Shown here piece after piece: positions 26,293-47,792 of a DNA stretch of 64,000 bases. The translations under genes and the position numbers were made by a program. Origin of the DNA: Candidatus Omnitrophota bacterium (GTDB lineage: Bacteria > Omnitrophota > Gorgyraeia > Zapsychrales > Fredricksoniimonadaceae); contig JADFXX010000001.1 in assembly GCA_015233335.1 (NCBI GenBank), forward strand, positions 134,302 through 198,301, given 5' to 3'. The stretch's first letter is position 1; each line of letters opens with the position of its first letter. Under the pieces are notes generated by a model. The model did not search any database, was not told where the DNA came from, and saw only the letters and a list, made by a program, of their open reading frames with translations.

Positions 26293-26293
26293 A

Positions 26294-34033: not shown

Positions 34034-34375
34034 TTACAAATTATACAACAGGTCCCGGCAGGAAGGAGGGGTCTTTAATTTCCCTTGCCTGCTCTCGACC
34101 CTGTCTTCAATGACCTTGGCCATTTTTTTAAGATCTTCTTTACTCTGCCCGGTATCCCCGCGCCCCAGTTTGATCTGAGCTCCCAATGCCATGATCCTGG
34201 CCATCTCCGAAAAAGTCATCGCCCCACAAAGCTGATCGATATCCTCTTTGAGAACAGTATCAACGTCAAGACAGCTCAACTCTCGTGCCAATGGCGAGTC
34301 CTGATCCAGTTGCCTGATCCCCTCGCGTACGGAATTATTCAAAAAAGATGCCATCTGCTGTTTAAGATTTAACAT
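34034..34375 (-). CDS. Hypothetical protein
   Basis: 113 aa. Tightly follows the PDZ gene (8-nt gap). No recognisable domain. Confidence 0.35.
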   Translation of the reverse strand: MLNLKQQMASFLNNSVREGIRQLDQDSPLARELSCLDVDTVLKEDIDQLCGAMTFSEMARIMALGAQIKLGRGDTGQSKEDLKKMAKVIEDRVESRQGKLKTPPSCRDLLYNL

Positions 34376-34383
34376 TTCCCCGA

Positions 34384-34938
34384 CTAACGCTTGATCGGTA
34401 AAAACCCTTCCATCTCGCCTTCACCGATAAAAATAACACCCTTCTTCTTACGAATGCCCCTCATATAGGTGATCTTTGCGTCCTTTTCCGGAGGAGCCTT
34501 GGTTAAAAGGTCCTGAAACTGTTCTAAGCTGGTAATCTCTTGTGTATTAAAAGTCAGAAGAATATCCCCTTGCTTAAGCCCAGCCTTCTCTGCCCACGAA
34601 TTACCCATAACACCCGTAATCTTGACCTTGCCTCCACCCACCTGGATCGCCTCAACACCCATGATCTTGATAAGTACCGGAGCATCCTGGCCGGCCATGA
34701 TCGGCGGTGCTCCCGGCATCGCAACTTGCTGTAAGCCGCCCTGATTGGCATAATACCCCTGCCCTTGGCCGCTGCCGGGGACGGGACAATATGCGGTTTG
34801 CTTAAACATATCCGCTGTCCTGATCTCATGCAACGTATCTTGGGCGGTATCCTGTACAACATTATCAAAACATAGCGCAATAATGATCATGGCAAGAAAA
34901 CCCACTGCACAAAGCGTGATAATAAGTTCTTTCTTCAT
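34384..34938 (-). CDS. Membrane-anchored single-PDZ protein
   Basis: 184 aa. An N-terminal TM helix and a PDZ core (GNSWAEKAGLKQGDILLTFNTQEITSLEQFQDLL). Confidence 0.65.
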   Translation of the reverse strand: MKKELIITLCAVGFLAMIIIALCFDNVVQDTAQDTLHEIRTADMFKQTAYCPVPGSGQGQGYYANQGGLQQVAMPGAPPIMAGQDAPVLIKIMGVEAIQVGGGKVKITGVMGNSWAEKAGLKQGDILLTFNTQEITSLEQFQDLLTKAPPEKDAKITYMRGIRKKKGVIFIGEGEMEGFLPIKR

Positions 34939-34960
34939 AGAGATTCCTTTATAAATTTGC

Positions 34961-35027
34961 CGTCATTCTGAGGACAAGCCGAAGAATCAAAAGGCCCCTT
35001 AAGATCCTTCGCTAAAGCTCAAAATGA
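34961..35027. repeat. Palindromic intergenic repeat, type B, full (degenerate) copy
   Basis: gtcattctgaggacaagccgaagaatc ... cttaagatccttcgctaaagctcaaaatgac, between the TauE and PDZ genes. Confidence 0.8.
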
Positions 35028-35047
35028 CAAATAACTATAATGGCCAA

Positions 35048-36091
35048 TTACACAAAAAATAGTTTGATCGCGAGTATCACCAGTATCACCACAAAAAGAT
35101 ACAACGTTATTTTCGTATTAAGCTTGGGCGCAATGCGTGCGCCAGCCTGCGCGCCAACGATAACTCCGACGCCCATCCACAAAGCCTCGGCATAACAAAC
35201 ATTGCCCAAAAATACGTGCGGTAAAAGTGCGATCGCGCAAGTTAAAAGCGTTACAAAGTGGCTCGTTGCGGTGGCTACGTGCGACGGATATCTTAAGAGA
35301 AAAATCAAGATCGGCACCTGGAACACGCCGCCGCCGATTCCCAGAAACCCGCATAAAAATCCCAGCAAAAGATTCATTGAAATACCAAGCTTATCATTGG
35401 AGTAATAATCGTATTTAACGCCGAAACTGTCCGTGAATTTCACCCGGCGGTGTCCTGCAGCCTTGGATTCCTTAAGCAAGACTTGTTCCTGCTCTTCTGT
35501 CTTGTCCACCCTCCCCACGCTCATGATGGTGTATACGGCCAGGAAGATCAGGAAAACACCAAAGACCTCATTAAAAAACGTCATGTTGATCAAATGATGC
35601 GTAAAACTAGATATCAAAGCCCCCGGCATGGCCGCCAGCGTGAATTGGATCCCGCCTTTGAAGTCGATCCTTTTTTGCATGGCATATCCGACACAGCCCG
35701 AGCCTGCGTTTAAAAAAACAATAAACAGGGATGTGGCAACCAAAAGTTCATTCTCCCAGCCATAGAAAAACACCAAAAGCGGGAGTATGATAGGGCCCCC
35801 GCCGATACCGACGATCGTCCCATAACATCCGATGATAAGACCGGTCACAAGCAACAGCCAAGCCGGCTGATCAGGAATAACCGCAGGGCCTTGTGGCGCC
35901 GTCATTGCCTGCGGAAGTGCAGCCAGCAATGAAGGCCCCGTGTTAAATCCCAGCTGTAATGACTGCGGATTTGTAGTCGATGTTTTCGAAGGGAAGAACA
36001 TCGCGGCAAAAACTACGAGCACGATCAGGATAACAAGCCCTATCCTGACATAGCCCGTCCAATTATAAACGGTTTCTTTTTTATCAAACAT
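35048..36091 (-). CDS. TauE/SafE-family permease (equivalent of the MamO C-terminal domain)
   Basis: 347 aa polytopic protein with two TauE-type halves carrying GIGGGPIILPLL and GIGGGVFQVPIL motifs. Confidence 0.75.
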   Translation of the reverse strand: MFDKKETVYNWTGYVRIGLVILIVLVVFAAMFFPSKTSTTNPQSLQLGFNTGPSLLAALPQAMTAPQGPAVIPDQPAWLLLVTGLIIGCYGTIVGIGGGPIILPLLVFFYGWENELLVATSLFIVFLNAGSGCVGYAMQKRIDFKGGIQFTLAAMPGALISSFTHHLINMTFFNEVFGVFLIFLAVYTIMSVGRVDKTEEQEQVLLKESKAAGHRRVKFTDSFGVKYDYYSNDKLGISMNLLLGFLCGFLGIGGGVFQVPILIFLLRYPSHVATATSHFVTLLTCAIALLPHVFLGNVCYAEALWMGVGVIVGAQAGARIAPKLNTKITLYLFVVILVILAIKLFFV

Positions 36092-36111
36092 TGATTATCC
36101 TTATTCTTTCA

Positions 36112-36146
36112 GTGTCATTGCGAGCCCCGAAGGGCGAAGCAATCTC
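36112..36146. repeat. Palindromic intergenic repeat, type A, left arm only
   Basis: gtgtcattgcgagccccgaagggcgaagcaatctc, between the PDZ-permease and TauE genes. Confidence 0.8.
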
Positions 36147-36154
36147 TACAAAAT

Positions 36155-37957
36155 TTATGGAAGCATGCTTAAAAATATTATATACACGGTCCCGATTGCC
36201 AAGACCATGATCGCGGCCGGAAAGCCCCGGCGGCTGTAGCTAGCGAAAGTCAGCCCTTCCTTTTTTTTAGGGTCCATCCCCAGCTCTTCGACAAGGGTCT
36301 GTGAAATAATTCCCGCGGAAGCCCCTGAAATGCACGCACAGGCTCCGGCGATCGATCCGATATTCAAAGCCCACCACACCACATCCGTAAAGTCAGCAAA
36401 TCCAGATGAAATGACAACAGGGACTAGAAACGCTGTGGCCGGCCCGGAATTCAAAAGAGCCGTCAAGACAGTCGTCATCAACATCAAAAAAATGGGATAC
36501 AGGATCTTGTTACCCATCGCCATGCTCAAAAGCATATCGGAGATGACCTTCAAAAGCCCGGCATACAGCGCCCCTCCCACGATCAGGAAAAGCGCTATAA
36601 AAAATAATATATCCATCAGGCTGATCTTTTTGATCACCTCTTTGGCCTTGTGGTTCTCGATAGCTAAAAGTAAAAACCCCCCGCCCAATGCGATCGGCGC
36701 CAGATGGACCCTGAACAACGGCAATATAATGAAAGCGACCAAGACGCATCCCAAAATAAAAAGCACTTTTTTGATGCGCGGCCAATCCATATGCATTCCG
36801 CCAAGTTCTTTTTCAACCTTCATCAAAAAAGCTTTATGAAGCTTGAGGGACCTGATCTTGTCCTTATGGCGCAATTCGAAATACCACAAATACCATAGAA
36901 AGACAGCCAAATAGATACAGCAAATCGGCCCCATCACGATCAAAAAGTCAAGAAAGGTCAGACCCGCGCTCGAGGCCATCAGCATGTTCGAAAAATCACC
37001 GATCGGCGTGATATTCCCTCCGATCACAGAAGAAATGATTTCGGCAACGACGACCCCGACAGCATCAAAATCCATGCCGCGAGCCGCATAAATTGTAATA
37101 GGAATGATGATCAAAATAACGGAAATATTGTTAACGAAGGCAGAGGCGACAAAGGTCAGTACGCATAAAGATAGGATCACCTTGACCGTATCAGCCTTGA
37201 GTGCAACAATGACCCTTTTAGCGACATATTCAAAAACACGCAGGTCTTCTAAAAATATGGCAAAAATACTCATCCCGATAAAAATGAAGATCGGGCTCAT
37301 GCGGATCGCGTCAAAAGCCTCGGATTGATTGTAAAAACCAAAAGCCGTACCCGCAACCAGCATCAGAACAGCGCCAAGCGTAACGCATACCGTCCTGTTG
37401 AAAAGATTAAGGAAAAGCATGGTGAATGTGACCGCAATGATGACTAAAACTACCAGAATATCCCGGCCGCTTCCCTGCAGAATATCCATCCCCGCGTTGA
37501 CAGGGATAGTCTCACTCATATTAAGGGTCCTGCCTTGACGAGAAATGACAAAGGTGATCTTGTCCCCCGGCTTACTCTGCGACATCAGATACGCCATGTG
37601 ATTAGCGGACTGAACATCCGTACCGTTACATTTCAGGATAACATCACCGCGGCGAATATCAAAAAGACGGCGGGAAGAACCTGAGGGAACATTGTTGACC
37701 AATACGCCGGCCACCTGAGAAAGATTGAAATCCCGGGCAATGATAGGATTGACAGTGATGCCTTCAAATTCAATGGCATTAGTACCTGCAGACTGGGCCA
37801 AACGCGGTGAGCCGCGCTGGGGCATATTCCTGCTGTCCATAAAAAGGGCGACTAACACCACGATGACAACCAGGGCGATCGCGGCCTCCATGAACGGAAA
37901 ATTCTTAAACCGCGTCAACTTCTCTTCATCGATAGATCTGCGGATATCTAAAGCCAT
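36155..37957 (-). CDS. PDZ-fused ArsB/NhaD (CitMHS) superfamily permease, MamN-like candidate
   Basis: 600 aa. A TM helix, a PDZ domain (AGVLVNNVPSGS...RGDVILKCNGTDVQSANHMAYLM...GDKITFVISRQG), then an ion-transporter body with SAFVNNISVILIIIPITI and GGNITPIGDFSNMLMAS motifs. Confidence 0.7.
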   Translation of the reverse strand: MALDIRRSIDEEKLTRFKNFPFMEAAIALVVIVVLVALFMDSRNMPQRGSPRLAQSAGTNAIEFEGITVNPIIARDFNLSQVAGVLVNNVPSGSSRRLFDIRRGDVILKCNGTDVQSANHMAYLMSQSKPGDKITFVISRQGRTLNMSETIPVNAGMDILQGSGRDILVVLVIIAVTFTMLFLNLFNRTVCVTLGAVLMLVAGTAFGFYNQSEAFDAIRMSPIFIFIGMSIFAIFLEDLRVFEYVAKRVIVALKADTVKVILSLCVLTFVASAFVNNISVILIIIPITIYAARGMDFDAVGVVVAEIISSVIGGNITPIGDFSNMLMASSAGLTFLDFLIVMGPICCIYLAVFLWYLWYFELRHKDKIRSLKLHKAFLMKVEKELGGMHMDWPRIKKVLFILGCVLVAFIILPLFRVHLAPIALGGGFLLLAIENHKAKEVIKKISLMDILFFIALFLIVGGALYAGLLKVISDMLLSMAMGNKILYPIFLMLMTTVLTALLNSGPATAFLVPVVISSGFADFTDVVWWALNIGSIAGACACISGASAGIISQTLVEELGMDPKKKEGLTFASYSRRGFPAAIMVLAIGTVYIIFLSMLP

Positions 37958-37997
37958 TATCTATTTCCTCTCAGTAAGTTTCCTTGCTAATTTCTTA

Positions 37998-38091
37998 GTG
38001 TCATTGCGAGCCCCGAAGGGGCGAAGCAATCTCTACAAAATTAGATATTCTTTCAGGGATTGCTTCGTCGCTTCGCTCCTCGCAAGGACAC
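37998..38091. repeat. Palindromic intergenic repeat, type A, full copy
   Basis: gtgtcattgcgagccccgaaggggcgaagcaatctc ... gggattgcttcgtcgcttcgctcctcgcaaggacac, between the mamQ-like and PDZ-permease genes. Confidence 0.9.
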
Positions 38092-38103
38092 AACGAAATT
38101 ACA

Positions 38104-38928
38104 TCACTTCGTTTTTGTCATCGCGGCCCCTGCGTTATTGACAACAGGTTCGTCAATTGAAGGAGCCGTTAAAACAGCATCATCCCTTTTGGGCCTTATA
38201 TATTCTATAGAGTCGGGATTACCTGTCACGCGATACGGTATGATATTGCCTTTAGTGACATCATCATCCACCTGCGCGTAATGGAACATCCTCTCTTTAT
38301 ATCCAAATACCCAGGCATAAAGACAACCCGGAAAGCTGCGCACAGCGGCATGAAAAACGCTGGCGGCCTTGTTATATTCCATACGGCTTGCGGCAATACG
38401 GTCTTCAGAGACGATCAGGGCATCCATCAATTTCTGAAAATTCTGACTTAACTTAAGGTCCGGATACGCTTCAGCAACGGCCATAAACTTGGAAATAGCG
38501 TCCTCCATATTGCCGGCACCTCCGGCCTTGCTCAAATCAAGCAGCCCGCCTTTCTTGAGCGTCTCAACAAGTTCTTCTGCCTTACCCACATTCTCGGCAC
38601 GCTTATCGGCCATATACTCGTACATCGATCTCTCATGCTCTGCGTAAGCTACGACCATCCGGGCGAGATTGACAGCAAGGTTCCGTTTTCTTTGTTGCTG
38701 CACTTCGATCTGATGCTGCTCCATTTCGGTAAACCGGGAAAGACCGACGAATTTGTTAAAATAATAAATACTGCCCGCAATCATAACAACAGCCAAGGCA
38801 AGCCCCAAAAAAAGGTATTTATGATCCAGCTTGTTTAGGTCGATCTTAGTCCACCATTGATTTTTTACAGGTCTTAGCTCTTCAAAATCACTGGGAAAAA
38901 GCCTTTTGACCGTGTCTGATATTCTCAT
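38104..38928 (-). CDS. mamQ: LemA-family protein, MamQ-like
   Basis: 274 aa. An N-terminal TM helix and a LemA-type helical domain (QQQRKRNLAVNLARMVVAYAEHERSMYEY...AYPDLKLSQNFQKLMDAL). Adjacent to the TPR and CDF genes. Confidence 0.75.
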   Translation of the reverse strand: MRISDTVKRLFPSDFEELRPVKNQWWTKIDLNKLDHKYLFLGLALAVVMIAGSIYYFNKFVGLSRFTEMEQHQIEVQQQRKRNLAVNLARMVVAYAEHERSMYEYMADKRAENVGKAEELVETLKKGGLLDLSKAGGAGNMEDAISKFMAVAEAYPDLKLSQNFQKLMDALIVSEDRIAASRMEYNKAASVFHAAVRSFPGCLYAWVFGYKERMFHYAQVDDDVTKGNIIPYRVTGNPDSIEYIRPKRDDAVLTAPSIDEPVVNNAGAAMTKTK

Positions 38929-39766
38929 GTTTTTTTACCCCCCCCCCCCGCTTCTGAACTTTTTCGACATCCATAGCTTTCTTGAAGCAGACGATGGCGT
39001 CCTTATGATTACCTGATGTTTCATAAACAAATCCCAAAGCCTGATAATACACCGCCTGACGAGGTTCAAGATCAATGGCTTTTTTGTAATATTTCTTGGC
39101 CTCTTCGATCGATCCGGTCTTCTCCGAGCAGGTGCCCAAATGATAATAAATATCTGCTTCATCCGGATGGATATCACTGGCCTTTTTAAGAAAAGTCATA
39201 GCCTCCGGATACTCCTCTATAGACAAAAGACAATCCCCTAGCTCGGTAATAATATTAGGGTCATCTTTTTCCAGCTTGTCTGCTTTTCTTAAATATTCGA
39301 TAGCTTCCTTAAATTCCTCCAAGTTCTTATGGCACATAGCGATCATATAAAGGATGTTGGCATCCTTATCATTTCCTTCCTCAATATAGGAAAGAAATGA
39401 ATCCCTGGCTTTTTCGTAATCCCCTTTATCAAAAAATTTAAAACCCTGTTCCTTGTTATAATTGATCTTGGCTTCAGGCGGTGCCACAAATACGCTTTCG
39501 TAAGCTTTTGAAAGACCGTTCAAAATACGCTCAGCCGCTGAAACAGATGCGAATGCGGCAACCTTCAGCTTCTCCTGGATCTGAGGCACGGTTTTCTGCT
39601 CTTTCTTCACTGTTTTGGATTTAAGATGCCTTTTGACCGCAGGCTTGACTTCCTCATCCGAGCCGGCATCTTCACCCGTAATAACCTCATGAGCGACTTG
39701 ATCAGCGTCAAACACGCTCTTCTTTTCTTCGATATCTTCCCTTTTATGCTTCTTCAATTCTTCCAT
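38888..39766 (-). CDS. mamA: TPR-repeat protein, MamA-like
   Basis: 292 aa. About 5 TPR units in the C-terminal 190 aa (YEKARDSFLSYIE, EFKEAIEYLRKA, YPEAMTFLKKA, IEEAKKYYKKAIDLEP, HKDAIVCFKKAM). The 3' end as written depends on a G12 tract (see findings). Confidence 0.75.
   Translation of the reverse strand: MEELKKHKREDIEEKKSVFDADQVAHEVITGEDAGSDEEVKPAVKRHLKSKTVKKEQKTVPQIQEKLKVAAFASVSAAERILNGLSKAYESVFVAPPEAKINYNKEQGFKFFDKGDYEKARDSFLSYIEEGNDKDANILYMIAMCHKNLEEFKEAIEYLRKADKLEKDDPNIITELGDCLLSIEEYPEAMTFLKKASDIHPDEADIYYHLGTCSEKTGSIEEAKKYYKKAIDLEPRQAVYYQALGFVYETSGNHKDAIVCFKKAMDVEKVQKRGGGVKKHENIRHGQKAFSQ
38938..38949. repeat. Homopolymer C12 (G12 on coding strand) followed by T7 (A7) at the mamA-like/mamQ-like junction
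   Basis: Counted directly. It encodes RGGGV near the end of the TPR protein, 10 nt upstream of the mamQ-like ATG. Confidence 0.9.
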
Positions 39767-39804
39767 ACTTCCTCCGATTTAACTGTCATCCTGAAAATTT
39801 AACT

Positions 39805-39868
39805 GTCATTCTGAGCGAAGCGAAGAATCATAAGATATCTTAAAATCCTTCGCTTCGCTCAGAATGAC
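39805..39868. repeat. Palindromic intergenic repeat, type B, full copy (overlaps the mamB-like stop)
   Basis: gtcattctgagcgaagcgaagaatc ... aatccttcgcttcgctcagaatgac. A partial extra arm gtcatcctgaa is at 39785..39795. The right arm supplies the last codons and the TGA of the CDF gene. Confidence 0.9.
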
Positions 39869-40758
39869 ACCAATTTCTTTGCTACAAGATTCTCCTTACA
39901 CGTAAATGAAATCGTCACATCCTTGATCTGCACAAAACGGCGCATCAGGGCGGCGCGCACTTCACGGCATATGGCATGCCCATCCTTGACCGTCCATTTA
40001 GGATCAATGATGATCTCCATATCGATCCAGGCCTGCTGGCCGACCCTGCGGGCATGGATATAATTGATGCCCCTGACTTCCTTATATTTGAGCGCTTCTT
40101 TCTCAATAAGTTTTTCCCTGTCACCCGGCAGCGTTTCGTCAATAAGATTCCTGAACGCCTGAATCCCTAATGTAATCGCTGAACGCATGATCATAAGCCC
40201 GACAAAGATGGCGGCTAGCGCATCAAGGATCGGAAAACCGATATTCGCCGCAAAGACACCGACCAAAACCGCAATGCTTGATAGCATATCAGAACGGTTT
40301 TCCTGCGCATTGGCGACCATGGCCGGAGAGTTCAATTTCTTCCCTGCGCAAAAACCATAGGATGACAAAATAAAATTAGCGATGATCGCAACTAACGCGG
40401 CAAAAAAGGCCGCCATATGCGGCGGATGAATTACACCGCTTGTGATCACCACAATCGCATCTACCAAAATCATTACAGAAATAAAAAAAAGCAATACATA
40501 AGCAAAAACAGCTCCAAGAAATTCCGACTTCCCCAAACCCCAAGGATATTTCTTATCATCCTTGTGGCGGGATAGTGCGACCGTGATAATGACCATGATG
40601 GTCGTGACCACGTCGGTTCCTGAATGGATGCCGTCCGCGACCAAACCTTTAGATTTGGCAATATGCCCGACATAGATCTGAAAGATGGCCAGCGTCAAAT
40701 TTCCCAGGAGCACAACCCAAGGGACTATCTTGCCGCATCTAACGCATTTTTCTTGCAT
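39859..40758 (-). CDS. mamB: Cation diffusion facilitator, MamB-like
   Basis: 299 aa. N-terminal CVRCGKIVPWVV (compare MamB CxxC + W), TM2 ADGIHSGTDV (HxxxD), TM5 NAQENRSDMLSS (compare MamB NAWDNRSDAISS) and a C-terminal cytoplasmic domain. Confidence 0.8.
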   Translation of the reverse strand: MQEKCVRCGKIVPWVVLLGNLTLAIFQIYVGHIAKSKGLVADGIHSGTDVVTTIMVIITVALSRHKDDKKYPWGLGKSEFLGAVFAYVLLFFISVMILVDAIVVITSGVIHPPHMAAFFAALVAIIANFILSSYGFCAGKKLNSPAMVANAQENRSDMLSSIAVLVGVFAANIGFPILDALAAIFVGLMIMRSAITLGIQAFRNLIDETLPGDREKLIEKEALKYKEVRGINYIHARRVGQQAWIDMEIIIDPKWTVKDGHAICREVRAALMRRFVQIKDVTISFTCKENLVAKKLVSF

Positions 40759-40778
40759 AATCTCTGACCTGTTCTAAT

Positions 40779-40846
40779 GTCATCCTAAGCCCGAAGGGTG
40801 AAGGATCTTAAGATATCTTAAGATTCTTTGCTTCGCTCAAAATGAC
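40779..40846. repeat. Palindromic intergenic repeat, type B, full copy
   Basis: gtcatcctaagcccgaagggtgaaggatcttaag ... cttaagattctttgcttcgctcaaaatgac, between the two CDF genes. Confidence 0.9.
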
Positions 40847-40856
40847 AAAAAACTCT

Positions 40857-41756
40857 TTAATTCTCTGCCGGAACGACCTGAATTGCGATGTTACCGATAT
40901 ATTTGTCTTCACTGCGTAAAAACGCCCTGACCGATTGATTGATCGCCTTGGCCTCAAGGACGCTGATATTCGGGTCCATCTGCATGGTAATATCAAGGAC
41001 GATCTTTCGTCCTGTCTGGCGCGCCCGGACTTTATTGACATGCTTAATGCCTTTAACCGAAAGGATCCTGTTTTTGACCGTCTCCAGATAATTTTCCGGA
41101 AGATTCGTATCCATGATCCCCTTAAGGCCGTCTTTAAGGATGCCGAAACTGCCGTGAAGAACATGCGCGCATTCCAAAATGGCGATCGCAGGGTCAACCC
41201 AGTGCAGTCCAAAGCGCGTTAAAATAACACCGACGGCAACCAAAATAGACGAAACAACGTCGATCTTGTTATGCTCCGCATGCGCTTTGAGTGACGGGCT
41301 GTTTAGCTCAACACCGGCACAATGAGAAAATTTATAAAGCAGGCCGCTGATAATGGCGCTTAGGATCGCCACGAAAAAAACGACCGTGTGCTGGACAATA
41401 AGGACTTTTTTCGCAATGACAATGAACGAACTTAAGATGAGCGCGACCGTACCTAAGATCATCAAGGCACTCATTCCGACCTGGGCAATGAACTCGATCT
41501 TTCCGTAACCGTAAGGATATTTTCCGTCTGCCGGTTTCTTTGAATACTTGACGCCCAGAATAACAACAATAGAGGAGCCGACGTCGCTTAAATTACAAAG
41601 ACCGCTGCCGATCAGAGCACGGCTGCGTCCCAAAAACCCTACAAAAAGCTTAAAAGCCGCGAGAAATACGTTAGCCAAGATCCCCCAGAGGATCGTCTTG
41701 CGGGCACAGGATTCGCATTTCTTGGGATCTTTATGTTTCTCAAGCCTCATCTTCAA
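40857..41756 (-). CDS. mamM: Cation diffusion facilitator, MamM-like (variant transport site)
   Basis: 299 aa. N-terminal CESCARKTILWG, TM2 GSGLCNLSDV (CxxxD instead of D/HxxxD; MamM has YxxxD) and TM5 HAEHNKIDVVSS (HxxxD). Confidence 0.7.
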   Translation of the reverse strand: MKMRLEKHKDPKKCESCARKTILWGILANVFLAAFKLFVGFLGRSRALIGSGLCNLSDVGSSIVVILGVKYSKKPADGKYPYGYGKIEFIAQVGMSALMILGTVALILSSFIVIAKKVLIVQHTVVFFVAILSAIISGLLYKFSHCAGVELNSPSLKAHAEHNKIDVVSSILVAVGVILTRFGLHWVDPAIAILECAHVLHGSFGILKDGLKGIMDTNLPENYLETVKNRILSVKGIKHVNKVRARQTGRKIVLDITMQMDPNISVLEAKAINQSVRAFLRSEDKYIGNIAIQVVPAEN

Positions 41757-42015
41757 ACAACTCCTGGCCCTCTTCCGTCGATTCAGCCAATTTACGTCTC
41801 TGCTTTAACTTCGCGCCAAAATGGGTCATGAGCCAAAACATGTTCGATATGCCCAGCAAGTAAGAGATCGCTATGATATAAATCAGCCCGCATTGCCGGT
41901 TCTTGATGAGCGGCAGCCATATCCGTACAGGATCGGAATTCTCAAAAATAAAAAATCCCAGCAAGATAATTGCTAAAAGCCCTGCAATGATTTTTATGAC
42001 TGTCTTGACCTTCAT
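41740..42015 (-). CDS. Small membrane protein, LapA/DUF1049-like
   Basis: 91 aa with two TM helices and an acidic C-terminal tail. Overlaps the mamM-like start by 17 nt. Confidence 0.45.
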   Translation of the reverse strand: MKVKTVIKIIAGLLAIILLGFFIFENSDPVRIWLPLIKNRQCGLIYIIAISYLLGISNMFWLMTHFGAKLKQRRKLAESTEEGQELFEDEA

Positions 42016-42029
42016 CGGATTTCCTTAGA

Positions 42030-43217
42030 TCAAAATGCCGTTCCCGATAATTTTTTCAAAATAACATGGCAGTTGTTACACCGTCCGCGGTCCTCATGAG
42101 GCGCGACCGCTCCCTTTACGATAGGAGGAGGAGAAGGCAAAATGTCCCCTGCATCCGTCGGAAGCTGACCGCCGGTGATCATAATGATGTGACATGAAGT
42201 ACAAGGCTGATTCCGGCTTCGATGCGGGCTCAACGCGCCGGGTGTAATGGGCTGAGCCGCCTCATTTTGCGAAAAGCCCAAGGTCCTGACCGATGAGAAC
42301 GTAAATTCGATCAGCTGGCCGCGTCTTGATACTAAAACCTGCGCCTTATGCCTGTTCTTAACACGTCTGGTGGCCTCAGTGAATGCCAAAAGATCAGGAG
42401 TGGCAAAGCCATCAACGGCCACGACCATATCCCCTGCCAATATTCCGGATTCAGCAGACTCAAGGGCTATCTCATCCACCAAAAGACCCTTGGTGTCCGG
42501 AGGGATCCCATACTCTTTGGACAATTCCGGTGTAGTCGGTATAAGCTCCATCCCCAGCCAATGGCCTTCAACTAATTCTTTCAGGGCCGCACCCTGTTCT
42601 TTGGGTGTCGGAAGGATCACTTGAGGAGCATTCGAAGGGGCGGCATTTGAAGGAGCAATAGCCCCCGCTTCTGCAGTTTCCGCAGGCGAACGGTTTGCAA
42701 ACGCCGCAGGCATCATCGCCTGAGGCTGACCGGCAGTTCGGGTGGTATCTGCCATAGTCCCCGTCTTGGGACCGACATTGAGCATTTTTTTAATCTTATC
42801 ATGCAACCCTAACTTGTTCTCCATGGTGATATAAAGCGGCTGGCCGTTGCGAAGAAGATCCAGAAGAAATCCCGGCTCCTGACTGACTGCCCTCGCGACT
42901 CTGAGAAAATCCCCTAAAACATATATCTTCTGATTATTGATTGCTTTAATAAGATCGCCGCTGCGAACACCGGCCTTATATGCCTCACCCTCGCACCAGT
43001 TGACCACAACTCCCTGCTCATCCTTGGGGATACCAAATTCCATTCTCATCGCAGGTGTCACATTAGAAACCGACATACCGCCCCATTCCGCATCACCTGC
43101 GCCTATATGCATGAGTGCAGCAATAAAGAAGAGGGCAAGCCCCACCAGAACGGCGATGAGTAAAAACTTCATCCGTCTTTGCTGTCGCATTTCTTTAAGT
43201 TCAAGTTCAATAGCCAT
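42030..43217 (-). CDS. mamP: Double-PDZ, double-magnetochrome protein (MamP-like / MamE C-terminal-like)
   Basis: 395 aa. A TM anchor, two PDZ domains (AGVRSGDLIKAINNQKI; SGILAGDMVVAVDGFAT) and two magnetochrome motifs, SPHRSRNQPCTSCH (CTSCH at 42189..42203) and APHEDRGRCNNCH (CNNCH at 42066..42080). Confidence 0.8.
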   Translation of the reverse strand: MAIELELKEMRQQRRMKFLLIAVLVGLALFFIAALMHIGAGDAEWGGMSVSNVTPAMRMEFGIPKDEQGVVVNWCEGEAYKAGVRSGDLIKAINNQKIYVLGDFLRVARAVSQEPGFLLDLLRNGQPLYITMENKLGLHDKIKKMLNVGPKTGTMADTTRTAGQPQAMMPAAFANRSPAETAEAGAIAPSNAAPSNAPQVILPTPKEQGAALKELVEGHWLGMELIPTTPELSKEYGIPPDTKGLLVDEIALESAESGILAGDMVVAVDGFATPDLLAFTEATRRVKNRHKAQVLVSRRGQLIEFTFSSVRTLGFSQNEAAQPITPGALSPHRSRNQPCTSCHIIMITGGQLPTDAGDILPSPPPIVKGAVAPHEDRGRCNNCHVILKKLSGTAF

Positions 43218-43226
43218 ACGGTTTTT

Positions 43227-43490
43227 TTATTTCCCTAATTTTTCAGCGTCAATATTAAAACGTTCGATCGCGGTATTACACTCCTTGCAGACCCACAGGT
43301 CACGCTTGGCTCCCAGCATATACAAACCGATCAGGATCAGGGGAATCCCCAGAACCATGCCGATCCAAAAAAGGACGGCGATAATACCAAAGATGATAAA
43401 AAACCCGGCGACCTTGCGGTTGTAGCGAGGCCCTGAATACTGCTGCATTTCACCGTTGCAATGTGTACAAATAATAGGCTTACCTGCCAT
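43227..43490 (-). CDS. Small membrane protein with split zinc-ribbon (CxxC...CxxC)
   Basis: 87 aa. CTHCNGEM at the N-terminus, two TM helices, and CKECNTAI at the C-terminus. Confidence 0.45.
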   Translation of the reverse strand: MAGKPIICTHCNGEMQQYSGPRYNRKVAGFFIIFGIIAVLFWIGMVLGIPLILIGLYMLGAKRDLWVCKECNTAIERFNIDAEKLGK

Positions 43491-43506
43491 AAATTACCCC
43501 TCCCTG

Positions 43507-44775
43507 TTATTTCCCCGCACCAATGACGATTCGTGCAGAATTTGGATTCTGCGCCGCTACATTCTGCATTTGATTATTCTGCATTTGATTCGCTTGCATT
43601 GTAGAATCCAATATCTGATGACAATTGGAACATACTCCCCTATATGCATGCGGCATCATGGCATCCCGACTGATCGGCGGAGCCTGCGTTACCGGTTGCG
43701 TCATAGCCACCTGATTACCATAATTCCCGTTACCATAGAATCCATTTTGATACTGCGGTGCCATCTGGTTATATTGCTGTGCAACAGGCTGCATAGTATT
43801 CGGCTGCTGATAATAATTCGGCTGTTGATAATAGTTAGGCTGCTGATTATAATTCGGCGGCTGATAATAATTGGGCTGCTGATTATAGTTAGGCTGCTGG
43901 TACATCCCCCCCTGTCCCTGCATGGCTCCAGCTTGCATTCCGTTAGGCGGCAGCGGGCAATACGGATTATTCCCCATGCCCATACCCATCCCTACAGCCT
44001 GCCCCTGCATATATTGCCCGCCTTGACCAAAGGCTGCTTGAGTATTGTCAAAAGCTGGTTGTTGCATTTGATAATTTTGATTATATTGCTGTGCAACAGG
44101 CTGCATTCTATTAGGGATCGGACAATACGGATTGTTTCCCATGCCCATTCCTTGCCCCTGCATAAATTGTCTTCCCTGACCAAATGCAACTTGCGTGTTG
44201 TCAACAAAACCTTGGGGTGTTTGTGCCGGGACATTCGCTTGGGGTACCGATGCATTCATCGGCTGCGGTGATGCTGATATTCTTGCCTGACGATAAAGCT
44301 TAACGACCTTCTGCGCCCGGCCCTGATAGCCGCCGAACACCCTGATACCGAATTGCATCAAAACATTATAACTTTGGGGGTCAATGTTGCCCACGATCAC
44401 AGCTTCTTCCCCTTTACTCGCAACCAAATAAATGAGCTGACTGCTGGCATCAGGGCCGCGATAAGGATTCTTGACAGCTTCAACAAGTTTCCCTGAAAGA
44501 GGATTGACCACCAGAAAATAACGCGCTTCGTTGAGTGTCGCAGATACATTGGAAGCCAAAGATTGACCGTCGGTTGCGATCACGATCATCCCGCAGGCAG
44601 GATTGCCCTGCATGGCACTTTTGCCTTCGGGTGAAAACAAAGCATAAAGGCCGACGATCAAAACCACCAGGATCGCGCCAAAAATGAAGAAGGTGTTCAG
44701 GTCGGCATTCTTAAATTTCGCCATGAACTCTTCAAAAGTTTTATCAAAGCTTTTCGCTAACGGCTTCTTGACCAT
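43507..44775 (-). CDS. Membrane-anchored NifX/NifB-C-like domain + Q/N/P/Y/G/M-rich repeats + single C-terminal magnetochrome
   Basis: 422 aa. A TM helix, a NifX-like region (IVIATDGQSL...ARYFLVVNP...EAVIVGNIDPQSYNVLMQFGIRVFGG), a low-complexity region with an internal duplication and hexapeptide repeats, and a C-terminal MPHAYRGVCSNCH (CSNCH at 43618..43632). Confidence 0.6.
   Translation of the reverse strand: MVKKPLAKSFDKTFEEFMAKFKNADLNTFFIFGAILVVLIVGLYALFSPEGKSAMQGNPACGMIVIATDGQSLASNVSATLNEARYFLVVNPLSGKLVEAVKNPYRGPDASSQLIYLVASKGEEAVIVGNIDPQSYNVLMQFGIRVFGGYQGRAQKVVKLYRQARISASPQPMNASVPQANVPAQTPQGFVDNTQVAFGQGRQFMQGQGMGMGNNPYCPIPNRMQPVAQQYNQNYQMQQPAFDNTQAAFGQGGQYMQGQAVGMGMGMGNNPYCPLPPNGMQAGAMQGQGGMYQQPNYNQQPNYYQPPNYNQQPNYYQQPNYYQQPNTMQPVAQQYNQMAPQYQNGFYGNGNYGNQVAMTQPVTQAPPISRDAMMPHAYRGVCSNCHQILDSTMQANQMQNNQMQNVAAQNPNSARIVIGAGK
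43801..43905. repeat. Coding 18-nt tandem repeat, ~5.5 copies (hexapeptide NY[NY]Q[QP]P)
   Basis: cggctgctgataataatt / cggctgttgataatagtt / aggctgctgattataatt / cggcggctgataataatt / gggctgctgattatagtt / aggctgctgg..., read directly from the sequence. Confidence 0.85.
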
Positions 44776-44792
44776 AAAATACCCCCATCTTT

Positions 44793-45401
44793 TTATCTAA
44801 AAATCGGCCCGTACTGCACTGCTTGGCCCACGGCCGGAGAACCCATCTGCCAGCTTCCCTTATTCGGGCCCATGAGAGGACCATACTGATACTCAAAGGG
44901 AATGGTCATATAAAAAGTATTCCCATCCCGATAAATTTCAAGCAAAATACCTTCACGATATTGGACCTTATTGACCACATTAATAAAATCGTGAGTGCTC
45001 CTGACATTCTTGCGGCTGACCGAAAGGATCACATCCCCGGTCTTGACACCGTATTTCTGGGCCAATTCTTTCCCCTCATCAATGACGAACATCCCTTTAA
45101 TGTTGCCGGGGATCTTAAAATCTTTTCTGATATTCCTTGAAACGGGTGCGACCTCCATGCCGATCCAAATCATGCTGTCACCCTTTTCAATGACCACTCC
45201 CCTTTGGACAGCCCTTGGCTCCCGGCCTTCCGGAAATATTTCCAACGATTGCAAAAACCAGCAAAATAAAATGATCGCACCAATCCCAAGCCCGACAAAC
45301 AATACCGGCTGCTTGTTCCAAAAATCCTTGATTTTTACCTTGATCTTTTCAAAGTCCTTGAAATTCTCAAAATTTAGCGTTGACGCGGTTTTTTTCTTCA
45401 T
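44793..45401 (-). CDS. Membrane-anchored single-PDZ protein
   Basis: 202 aa. A TM helix and a PDZ core (IKGMFVIDEGKELAQKYGVKTGDVILSVSRKNVRSTHDFINVV). 4-nt overlap with the protease gene. Confidence 0.6.
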   Translation of the reverse strand: MKKKTASTLNFENFKDFEKIKVKIKDFWNKQPVLFVGLGIGAIILFCWFLQSLEIFPEGREPRAVQRGVVIEKGDSMIWIGMEVAPVSRNIRKDFKIPGNIKGMFVIDEGKELAQKYGVKTGDVILSVSRKNVRSTHDFINVVNKVQYREGILLEIYRDGNTFYMTIPFEYQYGPLMGPNKGSWQMGSPAVGQAVQYGPIFR

Positions 45402-46789
45402 TGTAGCCTCACGAGGATCTCGTCTTCTTTTCCGTTCCTCAAGATCCGTACATTAACGTTTTCACCGGCTCTGAAATTCTGCACGACTTTAGGAATTTCA
45501 TCCTTGTCAGTAATGAGCACCCCGGCGACAGAAAGAACAACATCCCCGCGCTGGATGCCTGCGTTTTCAGCCGGCGAACCGTGGACAACCCTGTTGACCA
45601 AAACACCCTGCGTATCCCTTAACCCAAATTGTTTGGCAATAATAGAATCCATAGGCATGACTTCAAGTCCGAAACGGATAGGAACCGGAGATCTTTTGAT
45701 GTTAGGCAGATCAAACTGTTGGGCCGCCAGCAACCCTTTTTGATCGACTGGGAAGGAATAGTTCTTGCCCAAATTCCTGGATAAAAAATCTTTACAGTCG
45801 TTGATGGGAATGGCAAAACCCGTTCCGCTGAAAACCCCTGTAGGCGCATAGATCGCAGTGTTCATCCCGATCACTTCGCCCTTTAGATTGACAAGAGGGC
45901 CTCCGGAGGAACCGCGGTTGATGGCGGTATCCGTCTGAAAAAGGTTCCCGTACTGGACCCCTTCAATCGCGATGGATTTGCGTATACCGCTGATGATACC
46001 GCTCGTGACCGTCTGCTCAATACCGAACGGACTGCCAACCGCCACCACATAATCACCGATCTGTGAAAAGCTTGAATCGCCGATGGCCGCTTCTGGAAAG
46101 GGACCGTCAGCTCTGAGTTTCAGGATAGCCATGTCCATCTTAGGATCCTGTGCCACCACATCCGCAAATATATCACGGGGCGGTTGACCAAAGACCGTGA
46201 CCACAATGTCTGTCGCTTCAGCAATCACATGATAATTCGTCAGTACAAATCCGCGTTCATCAACAACAATGCCGGCGCCGATATTTTCAAAACCTTTATT
46301 CTCGATAAATTTATCAATAGCCCCGCTAAAAGGAGGAACAAACTGCAAGTTCTGAGCATTTGGATTCGAACGTCCGACTGGTGTGCGCACTACATGCCGG
46401 GCATGCACATCACACACAGAAGGAATAATGGCATTAACAGCATATTTCAGTGAATCCTGAAAACCGCCATTATTGACTTGATTGGCCACAAGCTGCATAT
46501 TCCCGTATGGCGTGGCTTTAGTTATAGCCGCGCGGACATAGTTGCTGTCGGTGGGTAGCGTGGTCATCGCGGCAGGCATCACGCCCCCGGGAAAGGACGG
46601 CTCACCGGGAATCGGAAGCTTGACCTTGGGGGCTTCCACTTCTTTGACCCCCTGTAAGATGTCTTCACGCTTCATGACAACCCAGAAGACCGACATGACC
46701 GATAAAGCGACCAGCCCCATGATCCATGGACCTATCGGCTGGTGACAAAATCCGTCTTCAACTTCTTCCGGTTCTTTTTCTTGCGGCAT
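45398..46789 (-). CDS. mamE: Trypsin-like HtrA/DegP serine protease with TM anchor and one PDZ, MamE-like (N-terminal-type, no magnetochrome)
   Basis: 463 aa. Catalytic His (TNYHVI), Asp (DMAILKL) and Ser (GSSGGPLVN), with a C-terminal PDZ (GSPAENAGIQRGDVVLSVAG). No CxxCH motif. Confidence 0.85.
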   Translation of the reverse strand: MPQEKEPEEVEDGFCHQPIGPWIMGLVALSVMSVFWVVMKREDILQGVKEVEAPKVKLPIPGEPSFPGGVMPAAMTTLPTDSNYVRAAITKATPYGNMQLVANQVNNGGFQDSLKYAVNAIIPSVCDVHARHVVRTPVGRSNPNAQNLQFVPPFSGAIDKFIENKGFENIGAGIVVDERGFVLTNYHVIAEATDIVVTVFGQPPRDIFADVVAQDPKMDMAILKLRADGPFPEAAIGDSSFSQIGDYVVAVGSPFGIEQTVTSGIISGIRKSIAIEGVQYGNLFQTDTAINRGSSGGPLVNLKGEVIGMNTAIYAPTGVFSGTGFAIPINDCKDFLSRNLGKNYSFPVDQKGLLAAQQFDLPNIKRSPVPIRFGLEVMPMDSIIAKQFGLRDTQGVLVNRVVHGSPAENAGIQRGDVVLSVAGVLITDKDEIPKVVQNFRAGENVNVRILRNGKEDEILVRLQ

Positions 46790-46813
46790 ATCAACTCCAA
46801 AAATTATCTCTGA

Positions 46814-47038
46814 TCAAAATACTAATTTCTCATCTGTCCCGCCGGTCGCGGCCCGAGGATTAGGAAAAGCGGCCTGAACGGCAGCGGGAGTTGGTACGGC
46901 CCCCTTAACACTCCTGCGATGCCAATGTCTTCCCTTGGATTCGAAAAAAATAGCGCTCGCGATAATCACACAAACTGCGAGGATAACCAGATATCCAAAC
47001 CAAGGGCTGAAACATTGCTCTTTCTTACGGCCGATCAT
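46814..47038 (-). CDS. Small membrane protein, unknown
   Basis: 74 aa with a single TM helix (WFGYLVILAVCVIIASAIFF). Lies between the mamI-like and mamE-like genes. Confidence 0.35.
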   Translation of the reverse strand: MIGRKKEQCFSPWFGYLVILAVCVIIASAIFFESKGRHWHRRSVKGAVPTPAAVQAAFPNPRAATGGTDEKLVF

Positions 47039-47064
47039 AACGCCTCACAGAAGCTTAAAAAAAT

Positions 47065-47235
47065 TTACTTCTTATCCTTTAAAAATTTCAAACCGGTATT
47101 GACAGCGATCAATCCGCCTATAAAAAGCACGAGCGGCAATCCACCACGCAAAAAATCGCCGAAATTATCCCACCATCCGATGATCCCGACAAGCCCTAAT
47201 AAAGCTGCGATACCACCTCCGATAATATGCACCAT
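47065..47235 (-). CDS. mamI: MamI-like small two-TM magnetosome membrane protein
   Basis: Below the ORF-track cutoff. My manual translation is MVHIIGGGIAALLGLVGIIGWWDNFGDFLRGGLPLVLFIGGLIAVNTGLKFLKDKK (56 aa), with a GGAG RBS. The WW..F.FLRG..P..L..GL.A pattern matches my memory of MamI (..TAWWWSVTEFLRGAVPVALLI.GLVAL..). Confidence 0.65.
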   Translation of the reverse strand: MVHIIGGGIAALLGLVGIIGWWDNFGDFLRGGLPLVLFIGGLIAVNTGLKFLKDKK

Positions 47236-47298: not shown

Positions 47299-47661
47299 TC
47301 ATGTCAGGATATGTGAAACCTTATCCTTGAGAGAAGCAATATATTGTCCTGACACATAGGCGCTTCTTTTAAAAATACGGGAAATATTTGCCTTCTGAGC
47401 CGCTAGACTGGAAGCTGCAAAAACAGTTCTTTGCAAAACCTTGGGCTTAACTGTATGAAAACCGGCTTTGGTTTCAATGACATGGCCGATGTTTTTTTCT
47501 TGCTTAAGGAGGGATGTAATGCAACTTTCTGGGATTCTATGGTGCCCGCCAAAGGTTGAGGCGGCTTTGATCTTGCCTTGTTTGATCCAATTAAGAATAG
47601 TAAAACGAGTAACGTGAAGGGCTTTCGCAGCTTGTGATGTTGTGAAATATTGAGGGGGCAT
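47299..47661 (-). CDS. Excisionase/MerR-type helix-turn-helix DNA-binding protein
   Basis: 120 aa. YFTTSQAAKALHVTRFTILNWIKQGKIKAASTFGGHHRIP matches the excisionase-family HTH. The C-terminal 70 aa are unknown. Confidence 0.6.
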   Translation of the reverse strand: MPPQYFTTSQAAKALHVTRFTILNWIKQGKIKAASTFGGHHRIPESCITSLLKQEKNIGHVIETKAGFHTVKPKVLQRTVFAASSLAAQKANISRIFKRSAYVSGQYIASLKDKVSHILT

Positions 47662-47774: not shown

Positions 47775-47792
47775 ATTGTTGAAATTGTTGAA
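47775..47792. repeat. Tandem 9-mer direct repeat attgttgaa x2 (minus strand TTCAACAAT x2), copy 1
   Basis: Read directly. Lies downstream of apbE and about 33 nt upstream of the -35 above. A near-identical 18-mer is at 48775..48792. Confidence 0.8.

Follow-up and report, generated by a model that had tools for sequence, protein, structure and literature searches.

Magnetosome gene clusters (MGCs) of Omnitrophota were first described by Lin et al. (2018), who found clusters alike in content and order in four Omnitrophica genomes and distinct from those of other phyla. The core set common to magnetite-type magnetotactic bacteria consists of mamA, B, E, I, K, M, O, P and Q. Lin et al. (2020) then reported 20 Omnitrophota genomes of magnetotactic bacteria (MTB) among metagenome-assembled genomes (MAGs) derived from cells that had been enriched magnetically. 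Tooth-shaped magnetite is the product described for deep-branching MTB, among them Omnitrophota, and the clusters of deep-branching MTB show a stand-alone TauE, referred to as the ‘mamO-Cter’ state. In Desulfovibrio (Solidesulfovibrio) magneticus RS-1, tauE is required for magnetite, FmpB combines a magnetochrome with NifX/NifB domains, and chains are organized by Mad23 (HEAT repeats), Mad25/26 (coiled coil) and the actin-like Mad28; mad17 and mad30 are homologues of feoB and feoA, respectively. Here, we analysed 64,000 nucleotides of a Candidatus Omnitrophota bacterium (contig JADFXX010000001.1), referred to as the window, in which the run at 34034–47235 had been predicted from the letters alone to be a core magnetosome gene cluster of a deep-branching host and perhaps an undescribed variant. 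We conclude, with a probability of roughly 0.93, that this run is the core (mamAB-like) part of a magnetite-type MGC in an uncultured magnetotactic member of the Omnitrophota, MAG nDJH2_bin18 from the acidic peat of Dajiu Lake. The cluster as a whole is already known, being an ordinary member of the type first described in 2018; its control region may be new. The features of the locus are compiled in Table 1.

The window is part of nDJH2_bin18, which was published by Lin et al. (2020) as a magnetotactic bacterium. The MamP-like protein encoded in the run is 100% identical to MBF0503615, followed by dozens of Omnitrophota homologues at 49–84% identity. Eight of ten further window proteins exactly match entries within MBF0503608–MBF0503621 (locus tags HQL14_008xx), all assigned to one ‘Candidatus Omnitrophica bacterium’ contig. 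The remaining two, the MamM-like and the NifX-magnetochrome open reading frames (ORFs), have no exact database entry, and in both cases the annotated starts probably differ. nDJH2_bin18 is 61.5% complete with 1.1% contamination, comprises 1.85 Mb with a GC content of 44.1% and is placed by GTDB in p__Omnitrophota; c__koll11; o__UBA10015; f__GCA-002753745 (Lin et al. 2020, Microbiome 8:152, Supplementary Table 2). The sampling site, DJH2, is acidic peat of pH 4.9 at Dajiu Lake, China. Thus, the host belongs to a deep-branching lineage, as had been predicted, and its genome stems from magnetically enriched cells.

The run comprises 16 ORFs, all co-directional on the minus strand and separated by gaps of -41 to +146 nt, and no cluster gene is interrupted by a frameshift or a stop codon. 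ORF and domain scans recovered every element that the original prediction had named, each at the position given for it. Among these are three haem-binding motifs of the magnetochrome type. A six-frame scan of the 64 kb revealed only eight CxxCH motifs, and only three of them carry a PH-x5-6 prefix; these are exactly the three that had been cited and are not a product of chance. Two of them reside in the MamP-like protein (42189–42203 and 42066–42080) and one in the NifX-magnetochrome protein (43618–43632). Upon a search with the Pfam magnetochrome model PF18509, the check that had been proposed along with the prediction, all three pass the gathering cut-off of 30.4 bits, the MamP-like protein matching over two stretches.

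The MamP-like protein is described best by the NCBIfam model MamP. Its top PDB match is likewise MamP (4JJ0, E 8e-40), aligned to residues 214–388, that is to a PDZ domain and both magnetochromes, and the magnetochrome domain is present throughout the MamP-family homologues. As compared to MamP of the ovoid strain MO-1 (PDB 4JJ0/4JJ3), with which it has this PDZ domain and the two magnetochromes in common, the window protein possesses an extra N-terminal PDZ domain (residues ~44–133) and a long Ala/Pro-rich linker. Of the 58 homologues of the NifX-magnetochrome protein, almost all are from Omnitrophota. Judged by its domains, the protein is an FmpB-like combination in reversed order: NifX is N-terminal in the window protein and C-terminal in FmpB of RS-1, and the window protein lacks a PDZ domain. 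Its linker (residues ~170–360) contains one to three CPxCNW...CPNCG zinc ribbons in more distant family members; these modules were lost in the window MAG and in its relative nDJH13_bin20, and in the window they are reduced to NPYCPIP and NPYCPLP remnants. An 18-bp tandem repeat of 5.7 copies (43798–43899) encodes QQPNYY-type repeats in this linker, and the same repeats create a 271-aa shadow ORF on the plus strand (43456–44271). A literature search for magnetochromes combined with the dinitrogenase iron-molybdenum cofactor gave no match. The 87-aa zinc-ribbon protein encoded next to mamP adjoins this gene in Omnitrophota, Hydrogenedentota and Sumerlaeia loci. A ResB-like protein of cytochrome c biogenesis (system II), which is of relevance for maturation of c-type magnetochromes, is encoded far from the cluster, at the end of the window (581–1681, minus strand).

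Profile searches with the other proteins of the run point in the same direction, as Mam models were the best or the only NCBIfam matches for the MamI-, MamM-, MamB-, MamA-, MamQ- and MamN-like proteins; for the protease, DegP/HtrA outscores MamE. MamI is a small protein with two transmembrane (TM) segments that is specific to magnetotactic bacteria. The 56-aa protein predicted to be MamI-like contains GIIGWWDNFGDFLRGGLPLVLFIGGLIAV and two hydrophobic segments, and MamI is its sole NCBIfam match (E 3.7e-11, 42.7 bits, residues 1–53); its gene shows a ratio of non-synonymous to synonymous substitution rates (dN/dS) of 0.04. The predicted TM-anchored trypsin/PDZ protease indeed has an intact triad, with H187, D219 and S295 aligning with the DegP catalytic positions, and contains no CxxCH motif; its designation as MamE-type draws on its position in the cluster and is to be taken as putative. 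The 202-aa PDZ protein encoded downstream resembles FmpA/MamE-Cter in domain content. Both cation diffusion facilitator (CDF) ORFs encode the N-terminal CxxC that had been noted for them. The first scores higher with MamM than with the generic CDF (176 bits) and FieF (112 bits) models and carries C14xxC17 as well as C54xxxD58 / H162xxxD166; it begins with TTG, and the protein collection has no entry of exactly this sequence, so that its true length of nominally 299 aa is uncertain. The second is matched best by MamB, above generic CDF and FieF, carries C5xxC8 and H45xxxD49 / E153xxxD157, and finds FieF/YiiP and the C-terminal domain of MamM in the PDB.

Domain scans also confirmed the tetratricopeptide repeat (TPR), LemA, TauE and PDZ-permease proteins, the last of these as PDZ plus CitMHS. 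MamA is the best model for the TPR protein, the next family reaching 65.7 bits, and MamQ is the only NCBIfam match of the LemA protein. A run of 12 G, followed by T and seven A, lies inside the 3' end of mamA directly before the mamQ start codon (38929–38948) and could be a hotspot for slippage or assembly errors; mamA and mamQ overlap by 41 nt in the window and are separated by a spacer of ~70 nt in nDJH13_bin20. The PDZ-permease is best read as a putative PDZ-MamN fusion rather than as an unknown permease, as MamN is its best NCBIfam match, covering residues 168–596. It has ~50 full-length homologues, all but one labelled Omnitrophota, beyond which scores fall from 428 to 162 bits; one homologue is from GWC2_45_7, a genome analysed in 2018. 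In the literature, no statement for or against mamN in Omnitrophota was found. TauE matches NCBIfam MamO with 29.5 bits over profile positions 373–648 only, that is over the C-terminal half. One N-terminal TM anchor each is present in the protease, both magnetochrome proteins, the PDZ-permease and the two small PDZ proteins. Taken together, the Mam model matches, the magnetochromes and a MamK-family actin encoded further upstream support the prediction of a core magnetosome gene cluster, and its layout, in which the protease is devoid of magnetochromes, PDZ and magnetochromes are combined in a protein of their own and TauE stands alone, is the deep-branching one that had been recognized.

To compare gene order, GTDB species representatives were scanned with the MamP-like protein, yielding 26 loci, L001–L026, with a best match of 84%; the genome of the window is outside this set. 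L001–L018 are mostly Omnitrophota MAGs, including nDJH13_bin20 (L002) and a locus deposited as Planctomycetales (L013). Using tblastn with the window proteins, the order 245-aa gene, ApbE, HTH (helix-turn-helix), mamI, orf74, mamE, PDZ, NifX/MCR, orf87, mamP, lapA-like, mamM, mamB, mamA, mamQ, PDZ/mamN, tauE, PDZ, orf113, amaP, feoB was found to be strictly kept in L002, L010, L012, L013, L014, L017 and L018, and on shorter contigs as far as these reach. The same order occurs in at least 10 other Omnitrophota genomes and is collinear in L001–L018; order and content differ in the Hydrogenedentota, Sumerlaeia and unclassified loci L019–L026. Since the order is conserved, every architecture that the original prediction had not recognized is a standard member of this cluster type, and its place in the order is the same across many further clusters of Omnitrophota. 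Amino-acid identities between the window and L002 range from 65 to 93%, and dN/dS amounts to 0.04–0.17 throughout the 18 cluster genes, the small ORFs among them, at synonymous divergences (dS) of ~0.9–1.7. Such constraint on all 18 genes speaks for a functional rather than a decaying cluster.

Some relatives deviate in detail. In L008 (nDJH6_bin5), a member of one particular Omnitrophota sub-lineage, an insertion of ~10 kb (11167–21048) between mamP and lapA-like/mamM carries a complete siroheme-route haem biosynthesis set, composed of SirC-like, GluTR, PBG deaminase, SUMT-UroS, two radical-SAM/SPASM enzymes, ALAD, two NirD/L-like decarboxylase subunits and GSA aminotransferase; in this genome, haem supply genes therefore reside inside the magnetosome cluster, beside a magnetochrome gene. 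The same gap after mamP is seen in L007, L009 and L015, where it is probably caused by the same haem insertion; the window is without it. L008 also has genes for a FixC-like flavoprotein and a FixX-like ferredoxin between the HTH gene and mamI (3294–4921), and a gap of 1.6–2 kb is likewise found there in L004, L006, L007, L009 and L015. Finally, the full Omnitrophota gene order appears under the labels ‘Planctomycetales’ and ‘Patescibacteria group’ in L013 (CAZASA010000011.1), P0053 and P0252, which are probably taxonomic mislabels or binning errors.

Several points weigh against our assignment. The identity with the GenBank entries is established at the protein level only, and nDJH2_bin18, at 61% completeness, comes with no phenotype and no microscopy linking it to magnetosomes. 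All NCBIfam Mam matches except MamK lie below their equivalog cut-offs (80 bits for MamI, 350 for MamM and MamB, 400 for MamK), and the protease scores higher with the generic model DegP/HtrA (288.9 bits) than with MamE (249.7 bits). The protease-like half of MamO is absent from the cluster, in which TauE stands alone, and no cluster ORF has a family match to MamL. Moreover, the ~9 kb between MamK and the core consist of genes without an obvious magnetosome role, and the assignment to magnetite rests on the greigite-gene list of Lin et al. (2020) rather than on the sequence of the window. We considered the sub-threshold scores as an argument against Mam identity and rejected it, because Mam models are the top or only matches, the magnetochrome and MamK matches pass their cut-offs and the synteny is specific for MGCs. 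These equivalog cut-offs appear to be tuned to well-studied Proteobacteria; scores below them, together with the preference of the protease for HtrA, fit a divergent deep-branching cluster, though on their own they are no proof. The same scores, and the fact that HtrA, CDF, TPR, LemA, TauE and PDZ proteins are all widespread, could be taken to indicate a generic envelope-stress and metal-efflux neighbourhood unrelated to magnetosomes. The magnetochrome, MamI and MamK results refute this idea, whose probability is negligible: three magnetochrome domains exceed the Pfam threshold, MamP-family homologues carry such a domain throughout, MamP is the top PDB match, MamI and MamQ are the sole NCBIfam matches of their genes, and MamK surpasses its cut-off.

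It is also conceivable that the cluster is intact in sequence yet silent or vestigial, the host making no magnetosomes. A silent magnetosome cluster has been reported for a phototroph that is not magnetotactic (PMC9938234), and apart from the lack of a phenotype for this MAG, related clusters are also present in bulk metagenomes without magnetic enrichment (L012, L013, L017, L027–L047). However, purifying selection acts strongly on 18 of 18 tested genes in comparison with a relative at dS ~1, the promoter blocks described below are conserved, no gene is broken and the MAG derives from magnetically collected cells, which leaves this scenario very improbable. Slightly less probable still is a greigite-type or mixed-mineral cluster; greigite-type core proteins are described as a monophyletic clade. 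Greigite-type genes do occur among Omnitrophota, in nS315_bin20 and nS315_bin24 and only there (Lin et al. 2020), but nDJH2_bin18 is missing from that list of carriers, each core gene is present in the window as a single copy, and the magnetite described for deep-branching MTB includes that of Omnitrophota. By analogy, the mineral formed by the host is probably tooth- or bullet-shaped magnetite. The suggestion of an undescribed MGC variant is comparably remote. It could draw on the generic product names in GenBank (‘hypothetical’, ‘PDZ domain-containing’, ‘cation transporter’) and on our search of the published literature, which found no text naming the HTH gene, the PDZ-MamN fusion or the NifX-magnetochrome protein in Omnitrophota. 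For the whole cluster it is refuted, as the sequence was deposited and used in the 2020 paper and the same content and order are present in GWC2_45_7 and MBPbin6, which were analysed in 2018; it survives only for single unannotated components.

The candidate control region of this MGC lies in the gap between ApbE and the HTH gene, which is the first gene of the run. The HTH gene stands at the head of the putative operon in every Omnitrophota cluster compared and is kept upstream of mamI in 16 Omnitrophota loci. Its product scores 39.7 bits with the NCBIfam excisionase model (cut-off 28.8), 31.1 bits with BldC (cut-off 77) and 22.1 bits with MamR (E 1.4e-4); in the PDB, the product is matched best by two structures of BldC, 6AMK and 6AMA (E 7e-4). 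MamR of Magnetospirillum is likewise of the HTH_17/excisionase type. Relative to BldC, the protein has an extra 65-aa tail; the segment AQKANIxRxxKRGAFxSGKYIASIK is conserved at its C-terminus. The BldC contact residues T27, W31, K33, H46 and R48 correspond to T21, W25, K27, H40 and R42, and the residues by which the wing of BldC reads the AT-rich minor groove are retained. The base-reading Arg30 of BldC corresponds to an invariant Asn. Modelled by AlphaFold from its single sequence, the protein reached a mean pLDDT (predicted local distance difference test) of 39, and no usable fold was obtained.

BldC binds head-to-tail 9-bp direct repeats of the type AATTxxxx(C) (PMC5859096). Upstream of the HTH gene, tandem AATTTCAAC repeats are present, which form the tandem 9-bp direct repeat TTCAACAAT-TTCAACAAT and read in phase as TTTTTCAAC AATTTCAAC AATT... 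Allowing up to three mismatches, only two matches exist in 64 kb, as compared to 0.17 expected; the second copy (48775–48792, minus strand) lies 4 nt before the ATG of ApbE. The two best promoter-like matches in 16 kb both fall into the ApbE-HTH gap. Alignment with L001–L003 revealed three invariant blocks in this gap, namely the repeat TTCAACAATTTCAACAAT, TTGACA and the TG-extended TATACT, and the -35 and -10 blocks are invariant in four genomes at a coding dS of ~1. Fifteen related loci (L001–L015) carry the repeat ahead of the HTH gene. It recurs at both positions, upstream of HTH and ApbE, across Omnitrophota loci, with an equivalent promoter following it in L004, L008 and L012; repeat and promoter are thus kept in clusters with a coding dS of 1 or more. 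The Omnitrophota consensus consists of two to four head-to-tail AWTTTYAAC units, matching the BldC unit AATTxxxxC, and a TTGACA-N16-18-TATAMT promoter; the repeat is absent from the loci of other phyla (L019–L026) and from the contigs carrying the Mad28 region. On sequence grounds, the promoter at 47742–47713 is likely the start of the cluster operon. More speculatively, and with a chance well short of even, the HTH protein might bind the repeats and form a dedicated regulatory or architectural circuit for the magnetosome genes. If true, this would assign a function, in a deep-branching lineage, to magnetosome proteins of the MamR class.

The functional cluster extends beyond 34034–47235, which holds the core only: it runs on downstream via FeoB, FeoA/DtxR, HEAT, ParA-like and Mad28-type actin genes to ~19.5 kb. 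Both this continuation and the location of MamK outside the run, ~9 kb upstream of mamI, had escaped the original prediction. The downstream part from feoA via HEAT and ParA to Mad28 is conserved in the metagenome contigs L027, L029 and L034. The HEAT proteins may be termed Mad23-like by domain content only. The two downstream actin-like proteins, the second of which (475 aa) has a 150-aa N-terminal extension, were considered as MamK candidates and rejected, given that Volactin (PF25216) scores 264 and 278 bits, as opposed to 35 and 26 bits for MamK; they appear to be paralogues of the Mad28 type. Beside the true MamK, the segment 57626–62693 encodes a 144-aa ORF, an MbfA iron exporter (482 bits, cut-off 450) and an OprB porin, together with a second, canonical FeoB (660 bits) and an ArsR regulator, and the cluster may have a second iron/magnetosome module in this neighbourhood.

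The segment 15609–19514 (minus strand), downstream of the actin genes of the Mad28 type, encodes a coiled-coil Hpt protein, a hybrid response regulator-histidine kinase, two response regulators and then a hemerythrin. This signalling module is also present in L027. In L033 and L034, the same genes separate the two actin genes from each other, which suggests an association with the cluster and not a chance neighbourhood. Directly upstream of the cluster (47820–54844, minus strand) are genes for a partner-switching set (CHASE2-SpoIIE phosphatase, RsbW-like kinase, two STAS proteins), a 245-aa TPR plus channel-like membrane protein and ApbE; this set keeps its position in loci down to ~45% identity (L010, L012, L013, L018), with MlaD/E/F genes inserted among it in the window and its closest relatives. 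A genomic-island signature was not found in the window, where the GC content is flat (0.44–0.50) and neither tRNA genes nor an integrase were seen; the ‘excisionase-family’ match is the HTH gene. An Rfam scan of the window returned no match.

Table 1. Genes and candidate control elements of the magnetosome gene cluster in the window, from high to low coordinates (aa, amino acids; TM, transmembrane segment; MCR, magnetochrome)
Feature	Position	Strand	Evidence
True MamK-family actin	56434..57552	-	NCBIfam MamK subfamily 436.4 bits vs cut-off 400
Tandem 9-bp direct repeat, candidate operator	47775..47792	-	32 nt upstream of promoter; exact match
Sigma-70-type promoter candidate: TTGACA, 18-nt spacer, TG-extended TATACT	47713..47742	-	11/12 consensus match
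HTH_17/excisionase/BldC-type winged-helix protein, 120 aa, first gene of run	47299..47661	-	Pfam HTH_17 43.1 bits; dN/dS 0.17
MamI-like, 56 aa, 2 TM	47065..47235	-	NCBIfam MamI; identical to MBF0503621
Single-TM protein (orf74), 74 aa, no family match	46814..47038	-	Position kept in 16 loci; dN/dS 0.125
MamE-type HtrA protease (putative), 463 aa: TM, Trypsin_2, 1 PDZ, no magnetochrome	45398..46789	-	Identical to MBF0503619
TM-anchored single-PDZ protein, 202 aa	44793..45401	-	Pfam PDZ_2; NCBIfam MamP 40.8 bits over PDZ; position conserved
NifX-magnetochrome protein, 422 aa: TM, NifX/NifB-like domain, Q/N/G/P-rich linker, 1 magnetochrome	43507..44775	-	Pfam MCR 34.4, Nitro_FeMo-Co 31.0 bits
Membrane protein (orf87), 87 aa, CxxC...TM...CxxC split zinc ribbon	43227..43490	-	dN/dS 0.065
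MamP-like, 395 aa: TM anchor, 2 PDZ, 2 magnetochromes	42030..43217	-	Pfam MCR 60.4 bits; NCBIfam MamP 206.8 bits
Two-TM LapA-domain-like protein, 91 aa	41740..42015	-	Weak Pfam LapA_dom; kept before mamM; dN/dS 0.07
MamM-like CDF, 299-aa ORF	40857..41756	-	NCBIfam MamM 240.4 bits
MamB-like CDF, 299 aa	39859..40758	-	NCBIfam MamB 229.8 bits; identical to MBF0503612
MamA-like TPR protein, 292 aa	38888..39766	-	NCBIfam MamA 133.5 bits; Pfam TPR
MamQ-like LemA protein, 274 aa, 1 TM	38104..38928	-	NCBIfam MamQ 111.6 bits; Pfam LemA
PDZ-MamN-like permease, 600 aa: TM, PDZ, CitMHS/ArsB-type transporter	36155..37957	-	NCBIfam MamN 234.8 bits
Stand-alone TauE/SafE permease, 347 aa (MamO C-terminal equivalent)	35048..36091	-	Pfam TauE 210.7 bits
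TM-anchored single-PDZ protein, 184 aa	34384..34938	-	Position conserved
Soluble protein (orf113), 113 aa, no family match	34034..34375	-	Conserved in L002, L005, L013, L018, L034; dN/dS 0.17
AmaP-like membrane anchor	33129..33884	-	NCBIfam AmaP 50.4 bits; kept between orf113 and feoB
Cluster-linked FeoB (putative Mad17-type role)	31157..33151	-	TIGR00437 335.7 bits vs cut-off 315.65; position conserved
FecR-domain membrane protein	30284..31141	-	Pfam FecR; conserved in L034
DtxR-type metal-binding domain fused to FeoA (putative Mad30-type role)	29541..30293	-	Pfam Fe_dep_repr_C + FeoA; conserved in L030, L034, L026
Three HEAT-repeat proteins	28343–29416, 26294–27928, 24587–25597	-	Pfam HEAT_2; conserved in L027, L029
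Small ORFs among HEAT genes	27928–28362, 25966–26457	-	Within 24587..29416 block
ParA/MinD-type ATPase	23339..24106	-	Pfam AAA_31/CbiA; 90% identity to L027, 76% to L029, same position
Coiled-coil protein, 271 aa, Mad25/26-like by architecture	22555..23370	-	Weak SMC/tropomyosin-type matches; directly upstream of actin gene in L027–L034
Two Mad28-type actin-like proteins (putative)	21553–22542 (329 aa), 20095–21522 (475 aa)	-	Pfam Volactin 263.6 and 277.6 bits

Provenance, synteny and purifying selection of the locus, together with its gene content, protein domains, topology, motifs and catalytic residues, are direct observations; co-transcription, the roles of the proteins, the mineral and the phenotype are inferred, and the mechanism is drawn from work on homologous Mam/Mad proteins of Magnetospirillum and RS-1. 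The promoter would drive one long transcription unit on the minus strand, extending from the HTH gene and mamI via tauE to feoB and feoA/dtxR. MamI, MamQ and MamB would bring about invagination of the magnetosome membrane, and the MamM/MamB pair would pump Fe2+ into the lumen, with the linked FeoB/FeoA securing the cytoplasmic iron supply. In the lumen, the c-type haem proteins are expected to adjust the Fe2+/Fe3+ ratio for magnetite. That is, MamP, described as an Fe(II) oxidase that allows magnetite to grow (PMC11648623), may act as such, and the NifX-magnetochrome protein may serve as a second redox component, similar to FmpB. The MamE-type HtrA protease and four accessory PDZ-bearing proteins may sort and process magnetosome proteins, PDZ-MamN and TauE may mediate proton or anion flux, and MamA would coat the vesicle. 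Chain organization could be brought about by MamK, the two Mad28-type actins, the ParA-like ATPase and the HEAT and coiled-coil proteins.

The MGCs of deep-branching phyla bear on how and when magnetic biomineralization arose and are a gene resource for engineered magnetic nanoparticles. To this picture the present cluster adds nothing, its genome having been published as that of a magnetotactic member of the Omnitrophota and its type having been described in 2018. The gain is a gene-by-gene annotation where GenBank names are generic, along with corrections: the permease appears MamN-like, the NifX-magnetochrome protein FmpB-like and the downstream actins Mad28-type, with the true MamK 9 kb upstream. 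What remains is a modest lead on operon control and on unannotated components that occur lineage-wide, that is the PDZ-MamN fusion and the NifX-magnetochrome protein.

When compared with the described systems, the locus differs from mamAB of Magnetospirillum, in which MamE carries magnetochromes and MamO is a fusion of a protease with TauE, consistent with the NCBIfam profile coordinates. The window has homologues of MamI, E, K, M, N, O (the TauE half), P, A, Q and B and, in addition, a weakly MamR-like HTH protein; MamN of Magnetospirillum lacks a PDZ domain, the 437-position MamN profile aligning only to residues 168–596 of the window protein. MamH, J, L, S and T have no family matches among the cluster ORFs, which places the locus outside the Magnetospirillum-type mamAB; mamH, F, S and T are Pseudomonadota-specific. 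With the Nitrospirota clusters of Ca. Magnetobacterium and Ca. Magnetomonas, which comprise mamO-Cter (TauE), mamI, E, A, B, Q, M and P as well as mad23–26, it has the deep-branching layout in common. The genes man1–6, which define the Nitrospirota type, were not in evidence in the window, no comparison with reference man sequences having been made. RS-1, a member of the Desulfobacterota, shows the same split architecture, in that its MamE is devoid of magnetochromes, its PDZ/magnetochrome proteins (FmpA, FmpB) are encoded separately and its TauE stands alone. In contrast to RS-1, the window has the PDZ-MamN fusion and a different gene order, the likeness being drawn from domains and descriptions, and general profile scans of the window proteins gave no family match to Mad1, Mad2 or Mad6. 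The Omnitrophota-type MGCs (Cal1bin1, MBPbin6, GWC2_45_7 and GWA2_45_18 of Lin et al. 2018; Lin et al. 2020), finally, are identical to the window in content and order from the HTH gene to feoB. They share with it the NifX-magnetochrome protein, the 87-aa zinc-ribbon protein, PDZ-MamN and the TM-PDZ proteins, and there is no difference at the level of the cluster.

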